Source of the DNA: Promethearchaeota archaeon
GTDB lineage: Archaea; Asgardarchaeota; Lokiarchaeia; Sigyniarchaeales; SOKP01
Direction: 5' to 3'
Length of the DNA stretch: 22,070 bases
Assembly (NCBI GenBank): GCA_019058295.1
Contig: JAHPZI010000018.1
Coordinates: 73,578 to 95,647 of the forward strand
The notes below the pieces were generated by a model. It ran no database searches and had not been told where the DNA came from. It saw only the letters and a program-made list of their open reading frames with translations. Below are positions 8,810 through 15,368 of this stretch, piece by piece (within the stretch, counting starts at the first letter, position 1; the number at the start of each line of letters is the position of its first letter). Made by a program: the position numbers and the translations under genes.

Positions 8810-9760
8810 ATGGAAATAACTCCTCAAAAGATTTGTGAAGATTTTCGAAGTAATAGATTAGATAAACATTCTGCAATTAAACAATTAATCTCTTTAATTG
8901 AAAATAGTGATGATGAAGAGATTCGAGAAGAGACTGTTTATTGTTTTCAGAACATTGGTGCAATAAACGAGGATCTCTTTTTATTTGAAATTCTAGAAAA
9001 CTTGCTTATTTCTGATTTAAATGAAAAAGTTAGAATTGCAGCTGCTAAATTAATTAAGGATAACTTTCTTCATAAAGCTATAAAACCTATGAAATGGGCG
9101 ATACAATACGAATCTGATTGCGAATGCTTTATAAGTATTATTGAAACTTTAGTTAAAATAAATAATGTGGAATCCAAATCAATTTTAAATGATGAGATCA
9201 AAAAAATCAAGAAAGAAAAATATCTTGATAAGAGTAAAAGAATTGATAATAAAAAGTTTAAAAGATCTATTAAAAAATTACTCAAAGAGAGAAAGTCTGA
9301 AAGTTTTTTGCATGATGAGTTAGCTCAAATAATAATCAATTATAAAATTATGTCTGCTTTAACAAAAAAATTTTATTCCGTTTACTTTGAATTAGAAAGC
9401 GCGTTAGTAGTTAAATTAGACTTAGCTGATGTTGAATACGAAGTAAGAGGGTGGAAAGCAGACTTTAAAAATAATATAAGAGATCTTTCTGAAATTACTG
9501 GCTTAAAAAATTTAAAACATCTATCTTATATCGATATTTCAAATAATTTAATTAGAAATATTAAAGAATTATCAGATTTGGAAAATTTAACACATTTATT
9601 AATATCTAATAATAAAATTACTGATATAAAGAATATCGATTATATAAAACAAATGCCAAATCTTATTTACTTAGATATAAGAGGTAATGAATTTGCTGCT
9701 AAAGTTAACAAACACGATTTTGAAAATTTAAAAGATAAAATAAGAACTTTTTATTATTAA
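8810..9760 (+). CDS. HEAT-repeat + leucine-rich-repeat protein
   Basis: N-terminal LIENSDDEEIREET and LLISDLNEKVRIAAAK HEAT-like units; C-terminal LRRs (LSYIDISNNLI, LTHLLISNNKI, LIYLDIRGNEF). Confidence 0.85.
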   Translation: MEITPQKICEDFRSNRLDKHSAIKQLISLIENSDDEEIREETVYCFQNIGAINEDLFLFEILENLLISDLNEKVRIAAAKLIKDNFLHKAIKPMKWAIQYESDCECFISIIETLVKINNVESKSILNDEIKKIKKEKYLDKSKRIDNKKFKRSIKKLLKERKSESFLHDELAQIIINYKIMSALTKKFYSVYFELESALVVKLDLADVEYEVRGWKADFKNNIRDLSEITGLKNLKHLSYIDISNNLIRNIKELSDLENLTHLLISNNKITDIKNIDYIKQMPNLIYLDIRGNEFAAKVNKHDFENLKDKIRTFYY

Positions 9761-9797: not shown

Positions 9798-11171
9798 TTA
9801 AACGGATGTAAATTCCGTCTTTTTCACGCCAAATAATCCTAAGGATACACCAAGTTCATGATGGTCTTTGGCATAGGTCTTTACTGGAATTCCCTTTAAA
9901 GCTGCGTTTATAGCTTGCCGGAATGCCTTAGCTCCAGCAATGGGCCCTTCTGGATGGGCATGAATACCTCCCCCACTACCAATCATAATATTTGGTCCTA
10001 AATCTTTAATACACTTTTCCACAATTCCTGGAGTAATACCTCCAGAAGGCATCGGCAAAGTTCTTTTAATGTGTGGAGCATTTCCCCATGGTAATACCAT
10101 CTGTCGTGCCACTTCCATAAATTTTTCCCCTAATGTTGGAGCCTTACCATATGGCGCCGGAAATACTATCGTATCACATCCAGACAATCTTCCAAACTTT
10201 CCAAGAATTAAAGGACTGGAGACCCCACTAAATGGATCTTGAAAAAGTGCTCCAGCAAAATCCATATGTCCTAATAATGGCACCTTAACAGATGGATCTT
10301 CTGCCAATTTTCGCATTGCAGAATATCCAACTGATATATGGTTTACCATAAAAGCATTCGCTCCATGCTCCTGAAGAATATCTGCCCATTCAAACATCTT
10401 ATCTACTCTATCTGTGATATTTATGGTATATAAAGTCTTTTCTCCTTTTTCTGAGTCCGCTTTATCTAAAGCCTCCATAAATGCTACGCATCGATCGACA
10501 ATCGGATTGAAATCGACATCGGCAATTAATTCATCATCTTTAATTATATCGCATCCTCCAACAGCTGCTTCATAGGCTAATTTTGCTCCAATTTTAGGAT
10601 CTGTATATACGCAGGGTTTGATCATATTATTCAGCAAGGGTCTTTCTGGAACTCCTAAGAGCTTCCTTATTCCTATATCACCAAATTTAGGACCTTTAAA
10701 TTCAGCAAGGAAGCTTTTTGGAAATCGTACATCTACCATTTTTAATGGTCCCGCCATGCTAATGTTCCCAAATATTGTTGTAAACAGCATAGGGAACTGA
10801 GGTCTAAAATTAAGCGGATACGCAATTTGGACAAAATATTTTCGAAACTTCTTTTCAAGCGTGCTAACATTCAATACTTGATCTATCTGTTCATATTCAA
10901 AATCCGGAAATGGATAAACACCTATAACTTTAGCCACATGCTTTCTTCTTTGCTCAGGTGTTTCTTCTGGTACTGGCACGAAAGTACCAGTAGATTGTTC
11001 AATACATACTACTTGAGCCATATAAAAAGCATCTAAACTCTTAGGAAGTACCATATTATAACTTGCAACGATATGAGTTTCATAATCAATATCCTCGGCA
11101 ATAGCATTCGGTCTTGATCGAAAATCTTGGTCAAACTCGTCAGACATTTTTTCCCAATTATGTTCAGACAT
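9798..11171 (-). CDS. RuBisCO-like protein (form IV, RLP)
   Basis: IEQSTGT, FGNIS, GPKFG, GGCDIIKDDE, MPSGG, GGGIHAHPEG. IKPC, GHMDFAG and FPAPYGK replace the carboxylase KPK, HRAxH and H..GK residues. Confidence 0.9.
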   Translation of the reverse strand: MSEHNWEKMSDEFDQDFRSRPNAIAEDIDYETHIVASYNMVLPKSLDAFYMAQVVCIEQSTGTFVPVPEETPEQRRKHVAKVIGVYPFPDFEYEQIDQVLNVSTLEKKFRKYFVQIAYPLNFRPQFPMLFTTIFGNISMAGPLKMVDVRFPKSFLAEFKGPKFGDIGIRKLLGVPERPLLNNMIKPCVYTDPKIGAKLAYEAAVGGCDIIKDDELIADVDFNPIVDRCVAFMEALDKADSEKGEKTLYTINITDRVDKMFEWADILQEHGANAFMVNHISVGYSAMRKLAEDPSVKVPLLGHMDFAGALFQDPFSGVSSPLILGKFGRLSGCDTIVFPAPYGKAPTLGEKFMEVARQMVLPWGNAPHIKRTLPMPSGGITPGIVEKCIKDLGPNIMIGSGGGIHAHPEGPIAGAKAFRQAINAALKGIPVKTYAKDHHELGVSLGLFGVKKTEFTSV

Positions 11172-11331: not shown

Positions 11332-11976
11332 TCAATTTCCCTTTCTTAGGAATAGAAAGATTTTTCTTTTTTTTGGATTATTTGGATTATCTATTACAAA
11401 ATTTCCATTTAACTCGGTGTTATCAGTAAAGAACTTTCCAATTTCTTCCATAATTTCATTATTTTTAGGATAAAATTGAAAAATTATTTTTGATTCTGGT
11501 TTTAGAATCCTTTCAAAAGATTTGGTTAAATTAAGAAGTCTTAATCGCATTTTTCTGTGATTTATATCTCTATATATCCACTGTAGCGTAGAAATAGAAA
11601 TAATAGCATCAAAGCTATTAGATTGAAACGGTAATAAGCACATATCGGCAGCAATAGGATTCAATTCCCTTAAATCGTAAAAATACAGGAATTCTGAAAT
11701 TATATCTAAAGCAACTACATTATATCCCATTTCTTTTAGATAAATAGACGTAAATCCAGGTCCACAACCAGCATCTAAAATTAAACCGTTCGTTTTTTTA
11801 AAATCCAATAATTCAAGAGCTCTGATAGTAATTTTTTCTTGTATTTTCATCATACTTTTTGAGGTAGCGTATTTAGAAAGAATTTTTCCCGAAAAATAAT
11901 CCATAACATTTTTATAACGTTCTTCTGGTCTTTCTTTTTTTACATCAAAATCGTAATCGTCTTTCAATCTTAACAA
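11332..11976 (-). CDS. Bud23/WBSCR22-like class I SAM-dependent (SSU rRNA guanine-N7) methyltransferase
   Basis: RPEE, KY...IQEKITIRALELL, ILDAGCGPG, PFQSNSFDAIISISTLQW, QFYPKN, VIDNPNNPKKRKIFLFL are collinear with the yeast Bud23 motifs as I recall them (RPEE, IQAKMTLRALELL, FDAAISISAIQW, QFYPKN). Confidence 0.85.
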   Translation of the reverse strand: MLRLKDDYDFDVKKERPEERYKNVMDYFSGKILSKYATSKSMMKIQEKITIRALELLDFKKTNGLILDAGCGPGFTSIYLKEMGYNVVALDIISEFLYFYDLRELNPIAADMCLLPFQSNSFDAIISISTLQWIYRDINHRKMRLRLLNLTKSFERILKPESKIIFQFYPKNNEIMEEIGKFFTDNTELNGNFVIDNPNNPKKRKIFLFLRKGN

Positions 11977-12092
11977 TCCTATTTCATTAAGTCTAAAATG
12001 GAGTAAAACATAAATTTTATTAAATTTTGTTAATTTAACTAGTCTAATCTGATTTAGATTATTAATTTATTAGAAATTTTTTGTGATTTTCA

Positions 12093-12395
12093 TTGTCAGA
12101 GAAAGAGGATAAGTTACTAGTAAGAAAAGCAACAATAAATTTAAGGAGAAAATACGGAAGAACAAAGCAAATTAATATTTTAGAGAGAGATGCCTTCATT
12201 CCAAACAAAATCGAAAAAGAAATAAGAGAAACTTTCCTAAAAAAGAAAACAATCACAGCCACAGAAATCGCTTTAAGATACGATATTAGGGTGTCTACAG
12301 CAAAATTATTATTAAACCAATATGAAGAAGAAGGATTAATAAAACTTTTAGATCCTTCTTTAACATTGAAAATTTATGTCCCTATTTCTAAGTAA
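12093..12395 (+). CDS. rps25e: Small subunit ribosomal protein eS25
   Basis: 100-aa basic protein; KTITATEIALRYDIRVSTAKLLLNQYEEEGLIKLL...LKIY fits the S25e winged-helix pattern. Confidence 0.85.
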   Translation: MSEKEDKLLVRKATINLRRKYGRTKQINILERDAFIPNKIEKEIRETFLKKKTITATEIALRYDIRVSTAKLLLNQYEEEGLIKLLDPSLTLKIYVPISK

Positions 12396-12636: not shown

Positions 12637-13572
12637 TTATTGGATAAGTTGAAGAATTAAATTTTCCATTTGAGGCTTAGCGGCTTCTATTTTATCTAAA
12701 ATATTGATTGTTTTTTCTAAATTATCTTCTTCCTCCTCTATAATAAATAACAAATAAAACTCTAATCCTCCAAAATTCATTACTTCAACTACACCACTAA
12801 ACCGTTGACCGCTTTCAAACTTTTCTGAAAATTCGAATAAATCACGATTTTCAGCTATAATTCTTTTTTGAACCGTAATGTACATATCATAAATTTTCAA
12901 TTTCTCTTGTAGATGGAGATGAGGTCTATAATATTCACCAATAGTAATTCCCCTGGAATCAAATAAAGCTATTAATATGGAATTATAATTTTTACTTATT
13001 TCAGCAAATAAATGAGAAATCATCTCTATTTTATCAAATAATAATGATAACCCGCTCGAAAATGCGTCCATTACCGATTTAATGTCGTATATACTCGTTT
13101 CGAAAAAAAACATGTCAAACGCTTGGGAATACTTGGCTAAATTTTGTTTTAAAGTCAAGATCTTTTTATTAATCTCTTTTTCTTTTAGAATCTGTGGATC
13201 AAATTTATGAAAAAGGACAGCAATACGTGGATACATCTGCTCTTCTTTAAAAAATATTAATATTTGATCTAAATAATCTAATGATTCAATATAGCGCTTA
13301 TAATCCTGTGCATCAATTACATAATAAATTAAATCCATGCCACCTAAAAATTTTCCTGGTTTTTTTAAATAATCCTCTCTATAGAATTCTTGCCCTCCAA
13401 AATCCATTCTAATAAATTCGATACCTAGAAATTTGAAAGTATCTCTATCTACTCTTCGGGTTGGTATTAATTTAGCAATTTCATCTTCGAACCCAAATCG
13501 CTCTGTAATTGCTGTAATGATGCTTGTTTTTCCTGCGTTGTCTAATCCGAGAAATCCAATTTTTTGAACCAT
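12637..13572 (-). CDS. Arf/Rag-like small GTPase with C-terminal roadblock/longin-like domain
   Basis: G1 GLDNAGKTS, G2 PT, G3 DFGGQ, G4 HKFD, G5 TSI; C-terminal about 130 aa with LIALFDSRGITIGEYY...FYLLFII. Confidence 0.9.
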   Translation of the reverse strand: MVQKIGFLGLDNAGKTSIITAITERFGFEDEIAKLIPTRRVDRDTFKFLGIEFIRMDFGGQEFYREDYLKKPGKFLGGMDLIYYVIDAQDYKRYIESLDYLDQILIFFKEEQMYPRIAVLFHKFDPQILKEKEINKKILTLKQNLAKYSQAFDMFFFETSIYDIKSVMDAFSSGLSLLFDKIEMISHLFAEISKNYNSILIALFDSRGITIGEYYRPHLHLQEKLKIYDMYITVQKRIIAENRDLFEFSEKFESGQRFSGVVEVMNFGGLEFYLLFIIEEEEDNLEKTINILDKIEAAKPQMENLILQLIQ

Positions 13573-13739: not shown

Positions 13740-14021
13740 TTATCCACCCGCTAATGGAACGCTCAAATGAATGTTGTCTCCATCCTTTAGGGCAGTTTTA
13801 TAATTATTCAAATATTTAATATTCCTCCCGTTTACTAAGATAAGAATCTGTTTGTCTAATTTTTTTTTACTTTTGTTTAGCAATTGAACATCTAATTTAT
13901 GGCTGTGATCTTTTATAAATTTAGAAATTACTTCTTCAATAGTACTTCCATTATATTCTATAGATTTCTCTTTAATCTGTAAGTAAAATATGTTTAATAA
14001 ATTTAAATTTACTTTTGCCAT
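13740..14021 (-). CDS. MoaD/ThiS/SAMP/Urm1-family ubiquitin-like sulfur carrier
   Basis: 93 aa; ILILVNGRNI, LKDGDNIHLSVPLAGG with C-terminal di-glycine. Confidence 0.92.
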   Translation of the reverse strand: MAKVNLNLLNIFYLQIKEKSIEYNGSTIEEVISKFIKDHSHKLDVQLLNKSKKKLDKQILILVNGRNIKYLNNYKTALKDGDNIHLSVPLAGG

Positions 14022-14144: not shown

Positions 14145-15368
14145 TCAAAAAATTTTAAATTCTTCAATATTATTTAAGCTTTCCAGGATTAAATCCTTTA
14201 AATTTAACGATTTATATAAAGTTTTTAGCTCTTCGATGGTTATTTCTTGATTTTTAGGTTTAAATTGACAATAATCTATATTGACTAGATCTCTTGATAT
14301 TTTGTTTATCATTTCTTCAACATTATTTGACTCTAAACCTATAGTTGGTGTGAAAACAGGATATTTAGAAAATAAATAATTGAGGGCAATTGATTCTAAA
14401 TCCACTTCATCTGGACATAAAAAAGTATTATTCAAACTAACGCCGTCAGATATCGCCCTTATTCTATCAAAACCTTCGATATCAAATTCTTTTAGCATTA
14501 TAGATTGAGATTCAAATCTGATAAGTCTGCAGATTGCGCATATATATTTCTTCTCTTTTAAAATATTTTCTATATTTTCTATTATTTTTATTAGATTAAC
14601 CTTTCTGATTATAAAATTACGTTTTGGAGAATAATTTGCCAATTCATTCCAATTAGATAATTGTGATTCTAAAAAATACTCGTCATTTGTCAATTGAAAT
14701 AAGATTGGATAAATTTCGCATCCCCTTCTCATCAATAAGAATCCAGCTAATAAATCGCTTAATCTTCCAATGTCAGGAACCAAAATCTTTTTATTTTTCT
14801 CAATCGGTAACCCGCCCCATTCAGTCTTTATTATCTCAGTATATATATAAGAGAATTCACCTCGAACTTCAATATATATCTTTTTCATTGGATTTGACAA
14901 ATTTACTTTTAAATTAAGGTTTTTAAAATTATCCATAATTGCCTGTCCTCCTTTTACAGCAATATCATGTGAAGTATATTCATGTTTTCCAGATCTTTTA
15001 ACTCTAAGAGCAAAAGTATCTCCTTTATGTAGAATCTTTTCTCCTACTAAAATTAATTTTTCGACAATATTTTTAATTCTATTTGAAGTTCTTAACGCAG
15101 GGTTAAATGAGTAAATCCCAAAAACTTTTTTTAACACTTTTATTGCGTTTGAAATCTCCTTATTATTGAAAAAGAAAAGAATTCTTGCCGAATCTTTAGT
15201 TAATTGAAATTTATAAAATGGAATTCCAGATCGAGCTAAACTGATTTTGATATTTGAAATCAGAATTTTTAGCATCCTAATTTTTACTTTCCTTGATTTA
15301 AGCCAAATCTCTGGAGATGGATTTATCTTGATTAAATTATACAATTCTAAAGGAGGTTGATTTTTCAC
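14145..15368 (-). CDS. ThiI-like THUMP-domain protein with degenerate PP-loop
   Basis: EIWLKS N-terminus; THUMP (TFALRVKRSGKH...VNLSNP...IEVR); GGLP; LLMRRGCEI; CAIC and late DYC. The SGGxDS PP-loop is replaced by DIGRLSD. Confidence 0.85.
   Translation of the reverse strand: MKNQPPLELYNLIKINPSPEIWLKSRKVKIRMLKILISNIKISLARSGIPFYKFQLTKDSARILFFFNNKEISNAIKVLKKVFGIYSFNPALRTSNRIKNIVEKLILVGEKILHKGDTFALRVKRSGKHEYTSHDIAVKGGQAIMDNFKNLNLKVNLSNPMKKIYIEVRGEFSYIYTEIIKTEWGGLPIEKNKKILVPDIGRLSDLLAGFLLMRRGCEIYPILFQLTNDEYFLESQLSNWNELANYSPKRNFIIRKVNLIKIIENIENILKEKKYICAICRLIRFESQSIMLKEFDIEGFDRIRAISDGVSLNNTFLCPDEVDLESIALNYLFSKYPVFTPTIGLESNNVEEMINKISRDLVNIDYCQFKPKNQEITIEELKTLYKSLNLKDLILESLNNIEEFKIF

Follow-up and report, generated by a model that had tools for sequence, protein, structure and literature searches.

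Bud23 of Saccharomyces cerevisiae and human BUD23/WBSCR22, together with their partner Trm112 (TRMT112 in human), form the 18S ribosomal RNA (rRNA) (guanine1575/1639-N7)-methyltransferase (PDB 4QTT, 4QTU, 6G4W, 7WTN). Bud23-Trm112 has been treated as a eukaryote-only step of 40S subunit maturation. The C-terminal domain of eukaryotic Bud23 ties the protein to Dhr1, a helicase, and to nuclear import, and for these tail partners no archaeal counterparts are known. Here we describe MT1, a methyltransferase gene in a 22,070-nucleotide (nt) stretch of DNA (the window) from Promethearchaeota archaeon (GenBank assembly GCA_019058295.1, contig JAHPZI010000018.1, positions 73,578 to 95,647 of the forward strand), whose product is a tail-less member of the Bud23/WBSCR22 family. 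According to studies from 2017-18, archaea have no Bud23 homologue, and the matching nucleotide of their 16S rRNA is unmodified as far as known (PMC5372719, PMC6144793). Our literature search found no paper reporting an archaeal Bud23 and none naming both "Bud23" and "Asgard", and a conserved tail-less form in archaea contrasts with the published view. The Trm112-dependent methyltransferases of Haloferax volcanii (Mtq2, Trm9, Hvo_0019 and others; PMC6144793) are class I S-adenosylmethionine (SAM) enzymes that bind Trm112 through a beta-zipper, as we propose for MT1, but unlike MT1 none of them is Bud23-like.

MT1 lies on the minus strand at 11332..11976 of the window, as an open reading frame (ORF) of 214 amino acids (aa) with a TTG start at 11976. 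A second in-frame TTG at 11967 gives a 211-aa form, which is the database protein P0001. An initial annotation of this DNA, made from the letters alone, had called the product Bud23-type rather than a generic UbiE/BioC-like methyltransferase because of four motifs (RPEE, IQxKxTxRALELL, ISISxxQW and QFYPKN), and had described it as lacking the eukaryotic C-terminal extension; the alignments and searches below bear out both statements. The MT1 translation contains all four motifs (RPEE, residues 16-19; IQEKITIRALELL, 45-57; ISISTLQW, 126-133; QFYPKN, 167-172), and the yeast Bud23 counterparts (RPEE, IQAKMTLRALELL, ISISAIQW and QFYPKN) align with them in register, residue by residue. The C-terminal D-x-P-x-x-x-K-x-x-K-x-[FY]-L strand of MT1 also aligns with Bud23. 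Like Bud23, MT1 has the whole catalytic domain, including the RPEE/IQxKxTxRALELL helices, the SISxxQW of motif IV, QFYPKN and the DNPxxxKxxKxYL strand.

When MT1 was searched against all PDB chains with phmmer, the five best matches were Bud23 proteins or near relatives of Bud23. The best was yeast Bud23 (4qtt_B, 4.4e-25), in which residues 16-213 of MT1 match yeast residues 3-202, and human BUD23 reached 2.4e-20, while the next methyltransferase family came at 1.3e-8. The identity of MT1 to the solved Bud23 proteins is 32-34%. An AlphaFold2 model of MT1 has Rossmann topology and a predicted local distance difference test score (pLDDT) of 81.7. In a Foldseek search with this model the top eight matches were Bud23 chains, with E-values from 5.7e-16 to 3.2e-14 and template modelling scores of 0.76-0.81 (normalised to the target), after which the values fell to 3.2e-8 (Trm11, BioC and others). 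Such a likeness to Bud23 is well above the chance level, and the lead over other solved methyltransferases is about 17 orders of magnitude in the sequence search and about 8 in the fold search. The match is also reciprocal, a check suggested with the initial annotation: P0193, a eukaryotic Bud23 representative that carries the PF12589 domain, finds MT1 as its best match in the genome of the window (1.1e-23), followed by the paralogue at 1.5e-14 and the next gene at 6e-6. Moreover, a profile of the short archaeal forms gives 140-174 bits to PF12589-bearing eukaryotic Bud23 proteins and at most 83 bits to generic methyltransferases (BioC, UbiE).

The residues that distinguish Bud23 are conserved well beyond this one protein. 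In an alignment of 118 proteins, G70, G72, G74 and D91 (numbered as in the window protein) are kept in all clades, which satisfies the GxGxG of motif I and the acidic residue of motif II. Q46, S129, Q132, W133, Q167, Y169 and P170 are 82-100% conserved, most of them 91-100%, in four groups (the clades of MT1, of the Odin type and of the DPANN-like forms, and eukaryotic Bud23 with 27 representatives); the five outgroup methyltransferases do not share this conservation. Short forms from Micrarchaeota and Odinarchaeum yellowstonii share the tail-less architecture (190-220 aa) and the signature residues of MT1, but they belong to clades separate from it, and the Odin copy has uS7, not eS25, as its linked gene. 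Because only generic models match, databases annotate MT1 as "class I SAM-dependent methyltransferase": Pfam gives only Methyltransf_11 (9.1e-14), and NCBIfam only BioC, UbiE and TehB, far under their equivalog cut-offs. Automatic KEGG labels from JGI already call some proteins of the family "18S rRNA (guanine1575-N7)-methyltransferase". Selenocysteine was considered for four orthologues of one genus and rejected, as the in-frame TGA is located immediately upstream of the true start codon, and these are not selenoproteins. One metagenomic protein, P0123 (412 aa), combines two Bud23-like methyltransferase domains in a natural fusion, and its C-terminal half matches MT1 (34% identity overall).

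Unlike eukaryotic Bud23, MT1 does not have the C-terminal WBS_methylT (PF12589) extension. It ends opposite residue 202 of the 275 residues of yeast Bud23, at the end of the methyltransferase domain, and a Pfam scan found no PF12589 match in it. A hidden Markov model (HMM) built from the C-terminal tails of eukaryotic Bud23 matched 47 proteins of eukaryotic length but no short archaeal form. Given this missing tail, we do not class MT1 as a full eukaryote-type Bud23 orthologue.

A partner is encoded in the same genome. A gene of the Trm112p family (Pfam 8.9e-9) is at G000:C30:58174-58797 (= L001:1069-1692, plus strand), and its product has 207 aa from the likely start. An insert of about 130 aa, mostly helical, splits the zinc-knuckle of this protein and is larger than the helical domain of eukaryotic Trm112. 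One cysteine is left in the N-terminal half-site (ACPMDK), in addition to the C-terminal CxxC. Full-length relatives of this long Trm112 occur in about seven Asgard families, and elsewhere the knuckle alone matches. When MT1 and the Trm112 homologue were co-folded, the interface score (ipSAE) was 0.92 in three of three runs, and the best of three controls scored 0.00; among solved complexes 58 of 80 attain this mark, and among mismatched pairs 2 of 110, counts that are only rough here because own alignments were used. Contacts agreed to at least 98% between runs, and the partner had a pLDDT of 92. In the predicted interface, residues 106-123 of MT1 face residues 8-13 and 165-173 of Trm112, which is the known beta-zipper, so that Trm112 is placed on the same edge strand as in Bud23. 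Since Bud23-Trm112 complexes have already been solved (4QTT, 4QTU), the result shows likeness to them and may reflect memory. Thus the search for Trm112 and the co-folding, both proposed with the initial annotation, gave a gene and a predicted complex of the known kind. The AlphaFold2 model of the Trm112 homologue itself has a pLDDT of 78.9, and its best Foldseek matches are human and microsporidian Trm112 (E 0.25-0.6, not significant). As the model matches no solved TRMT112 chain significantly (best E 0.25), we do not call this Trm112 eukaryote-type. A eukaryote-like Trm112 cluster of three Heimdallarchaeia proteins has been put forward as a new candidate eukaryotic signature protein (2026 preprint, PMC13734099).

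The gene next to MT1 encodes ribosomal protein eS25, a component of the small-subunit head. It is found on the plus strand at 12093..12395 (100 aa, TTG start) and scores above the gathering cut-off of Pfam Ribosomal_S25 (E 1.9e-8, 34.9 bits against 28.8); the S25e models of NCBIfam match it at 2.3e-7, under their equivalog cut-offs. The two genes are divergent and are separated by an AT-rich intergenic region of 116 base pairs (bp) at 11977..12092, or of 125 bp if MT1 starts at the TTG at 11967. The eS25 protein occupies the top of the head and extends its N-terminal tail as far as the P-site region (PMC11698992). Both ORFs, their orientation and the 116-bp gap are as initially annotated, and the pairing extends far beyond the window. 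All 30 loci taken from genomes of relatives have MT1 and eS25 as a divergent pair, with methyltransferase identity going down to 55% and eS25 orthologues 56-97% identical, and so do all 80 loci of GTDB species representatives; these two sets are partly overlapping. The P-site region near the tail of eS25 is where the eukaryotic 7-methylguanosine (m7G) 1575 lies.

In sister lineages, uS10 and uS7 take the place of eS25. The sister family has MT1 followed in tandem by a paralogue, MT2, with uS10 and eS25 alongside, and one of its genomes has the order MT1-MT2-uS10-eS25 on the same strand. In three Odinarchaeia genomes (loci L038, L039 and L040) the Bud23-like gene is divergent from uS7; in Odinarchaeum yellowstonii LCB_4 the gap between the Bud23-like gene (L039:3058-3744, minus) and uS7 (L039:3812-4399, plus) is 68 bp. 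There are therefore three separate linkages to genes of small-subunit head proteins (eS25, uS10 and uS7), in three lineages. The eS25/MT1/MT2 locus, with eS25 divergent, is also found in the cultured Candidatus Lokiarchaeum ossiferum, whose MT1 is P0412 (NEF87_000158).

The family is archaeal but patchy, and it is not specific to Asgards. We searched an even sample of 201 Asgard genomes at E <= 1e-10, where a zero means not found in the genomes searched, and 49 had a Bud23-like match. They included all 40 genomes of the window's own family (f1), all three of the sister family (f2), three of four Odinarchaeia including Odinarchaeum yellowstonii LCB_4 (f3), the single genome of f18 and one of 21 in f5. 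The other 22 Asgard families sampled gave no match, for example 0 of 43 genomes in f7, 0 of 19 in f12 and 0 of 10 in f22. Within Asgards the family is thus found in the order of the window, in Odinarchaeia and in two other genomes. The genome of the window is itself of the Loki type. The public record closest to MT1 is "Promethearchaeota archaeon AMARA_1S" (98% identity); Loki_b31 and several "Promethearchaeia" metagenome-assembled genomes (MAGs) are in the same family, and Candidatus Harpocratesius repetitus belongs to the sister family. Beyond Asgards, an exhaustive HMMER search gave 244 cluster representatives at E <= 1e-10, and in the profile search many of the short forms were from Candidatus Micrarchaeota (DPANN). 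One member of a short-form clade comes from the 0.1-0.22 µm size fraction of Tara. A published study that followed 301 biogenesis factors, BUD23 among them, across 727 archaea describes none of the eukaryotic factors as exclusive to Asgards (PMC8481954), in keeping with the DPANN members found here.

The initial annotation regarded MT1 as an Asgard precursor of a eukaryotic maturation factor, and the trees agree with this in part. In a quick tree of 158 rows, rooted on generic methyltransferases, eukaryotes, MT1 and MT2/Odin group together with a Shimodaira-Hasegawa-like approximate likelihood ratio test (SH-aLRT) support of 86 (98 for eukaryotes), and Micrarchaeota and a further clade are outside this grouping. 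A quick tree of 118 rows has a backbone that collapses to a polytomy. A careful tree of the same 118 rows joins eukaryotes with the Asgard-bearing clades at 82/86 (ultrafast bootstrap, UFBoot/SH-aLRT), with DPANN-like forms outside and with strong support for eukaryotes (100/100), MT1 (98/95) and MT2 (100/98); its bootstrap values have not settled completely, and in it the five generic outgroup methyltransferases are paraphyletic. In an approximately unbiased (AU) test, a topology with all archaeal forms in one clan and eukaryotes outside was not rejected (difference in log-likelihood 3.6, p 0.453).

An Asgard origin of eukaryotic Bud23 is thus compatible with the sequence data and mildly favoured by them, but the tree does not place the eukaryotes. 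The alternative, to which we give somewhat less than an even chance, is that eukaryotic Bud23 does not descend from the archaeal genes, and that these represent an old archaeal family, with Asgard members no nearer to eukaryotes than those of DPANN, or the product of horizontal transfer among archaea or to or from stem eukaryotes. The spread of the family through 49 of the 201 Asgard genomes with none in other large families, its many Micrarchaeota members, the polytomy of one quick tree and the AU result for the monophyly of archaeal forms all agree with this alternative, while the union of eukaryotes with Asgard-bearing clades in the 158-row and the careful 118-row trees speaks against it. 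As for transfer, the eukaryotes are monophyletic on a long stem, which excludes a recent origin from a modern eukaryote. Since DPANN archaea share the family and the attachment of eukaryotes is not resolved by the tree, the evolutionary claim should stay modest.

The paralogue MT2 shows that the family has diversified. In the genome of the window it is at G000:C10:33916-34557 (= L042:3914-4558, minus strand), and in another genus at L043:3417-4052. It has the same length as MT1 and forms its own well-supported clade, and it follows MT1 in tandem in Candidatus Lokiarchaeum ossiferum as in the sister family. Its best PDB match is also Bud23 (4.5e-17), but only over residues 60-210. Since MT2 has N132, F133 and E167 in the pocket and no RPEE N-terminus in the 118-protein alignment, MT1 is the copy that keeps the Bud23 pocket. 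MT2 is an older paralogue with an altered pocket and probably a different target. In the genome of the window and in the other genus, MT2 adjoins a radical SAM gene (L042:2780-3910) rather than a ribosomal gene; the N-terminus of the radical SAM protein, MGTCKFCGK, is conserved in L043.

What does MT1 methylate? Its likeness to Bud23 suggests, with a probability that we put at roughly 60%, that MT1 is a Trm112-dependent m7G methyltransferase acting on 16S rRNA in the head of the 30S subunit. MT1 would pair with the Trm112 homologue of its genome through a beta-zipper on the edge of the Rossmann sheet, as the co-folding predicts, and the usual motifs (LDAGCGPG, D91 and D111) would hold SAM. The methyl group would then go to N7 of a universally conserved guanine of 16S rRNA, the equivalent of G1575 in yeast 18S rRNA and of G1338 in Escherichia coli. 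This guanine would be in the small-subunit head, at the ridge between the P and E sites, and the substrate could be a late pre-30S particle or the mature subunit, so that MT1 might have a part in subunit maturation.

Several points weigh against this assignment. The archaeal 16S rRNAs analysed have no modification at the G1575 equivalent (PMC5372719, PMC6144793); as far as known, none of the organisms behind those analyses carries the Bud23-like family. The assembly of the window, which is 79% complete, has no 16S rRNA gene. The gene neighbourhood is circumstantial evidence, and the one Micrarchaeota copy inspected has no ribosomal neighbours. Finally, the eukaryotic C-terminal domain is missing from MT1 and, by the tail HMM, from all the short archaeal forms, and therefore a role in a eukaryote-like biogenesis checkpoint should not be assumed.

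The main rival to an m7G in the 30S head is that MT1 is a genuine Trm112-dependent enzyme of the Bud23 family with another substrate, which could be another rRNA nucleotide, a tRNA, a translation factor or a ribosomal protein. Several points fit such a substrate: Trm112 of Haloferax is the activator of numerous methyltransferases that are unrelated to one another and differ in what they modify (PMC6144793), no archaeal 16S rRNA has a reported m7G at the G1575-equivalent position, the pocket of MT2 differs, and the Micrarchaeota copy stands outside a ribosomal context. Nevertheless, MT1 retains all the pocket and signature residues of eukaryotic Bud23, and the three independent linkages to eS25, uS10 and uS7 indicate the 30S head; we regard another substrate as less likely. 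It is highly improbable that MT1 methylates small molecules or lipids as a generic enzyme of the UbiE/BioC/TehB type with a superficial likeness to Bud23, since the generic Pfam and NCBIfam matches and the UbiE or CFA-synthase-like names that several databases give to homologues are set against the large lead of Bud23 in both sequence and fold, the alignment with Bud23 of elements outside the Rossmann core (the N-terminal RPEE/IQ helices and the C-terminal DNPxNPKKRK strand) and the support of the careful tree for Bud23-like clades, even with its paraphyletic outgroup.

The reading of MT1 as an m7G methyltransferase of the 30S head makes a specific prediction. MT1 and Trm112, beside genes for head proteins, predict an archaeal rRNA modification that is easily tested, and the prediction is directly testable in Candidatus Lokiarchaeum ossiferum, since this cultured organism carries the eS25/MT1/MT2 locus. 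The tail-less protein sets an ancient catalytic module apart from the eukaryotic tail, and it offers a concrete case of how eukaryotic ribosome assembly factors arose from archaeal parts. A wider scenario can be offered only tentatively. Ribosomes of Loki- and Odin-type Asgards and of some DPANN archaea may carry a P-site m7G in 16S rRNA made by Bud23-Trm112; eukaryotes may have inherited this holoenzyme and added the C-terminal tail, which couples it to the nucleolar assembly line, later; and MT2 may provide a second ribosome-linked methylation. If this were true, it would be the first eukaryote-type small-subunit base modification and biogenesis factor traced to archaea, contrary to the published view.

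Co-regulation of MT1 with eS25, which the initial annotation had also proposed, was not supported by the spacer between them. A comparison of 30 orthologous intergenic regions revealed a conserved element, AAATTTTATTAAATTTT, at 12012..12028 (plus strand) of the window, which is probably the TATA/B recognition element (BRE) region of the eS25 promoter. Its core, AAATTTTAT[TA], is present in all 30 regions. Measured to the eS25 start, its upstream position is nearly constant (63-71 nt in 26 of the 30 loci); measured to the methyltransferase start, it ranges over 35-89 nt. Most simply, the element would be an eS25 promoter rather than a shared one. A shared bidirectional promoter was rejected, as the element tracks eS25 alone and is no genome-wide motif (12 sites in the genome against 8 for a reversed control). 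A sigma-70 scan of the spacer gave matches at the level of shuffled sequence, and that model is irrelevant to archaea.

The names under which close homologues are deposited are a poor guide to taxonomy. The label 'Hodarchaeota' was rejected as such a guide, since Hod, Hermod, Thor and Odin labels all occur within one family, in which the better-characterised records (AMARA_1S, Loki_b31 and Harpocratesius) are Loki-type. The NCBI labels Hodarchaeota, Hermodarchaeota, Thorarchaeota and Odinarchaeota look unreliable for the MAGs of one study (DZ*, H3* and QM*; loci L067-L146), whose proteins are 58-73% identical to MT1 over the best segment and which have the same divergent eS25 pair as the other loci of the family.

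Other genes around the pair were assigned from Pfam matches. Directly downstream of MT1 is a gene for a RuBisCO large-chain-like protein (9798-11171, minus strand), and beyond it a gene for a protein with HEAT and leucine-rich repeats (8810-9760, plus strand). On the eS25 side, three genes on the minus strand encode a Gtr1/RagA-type GTPase (12637-13572), a ThiS/Urm1-like small protein (13740-14021) and a THUMP-ThiI-like protein (14145-15368).

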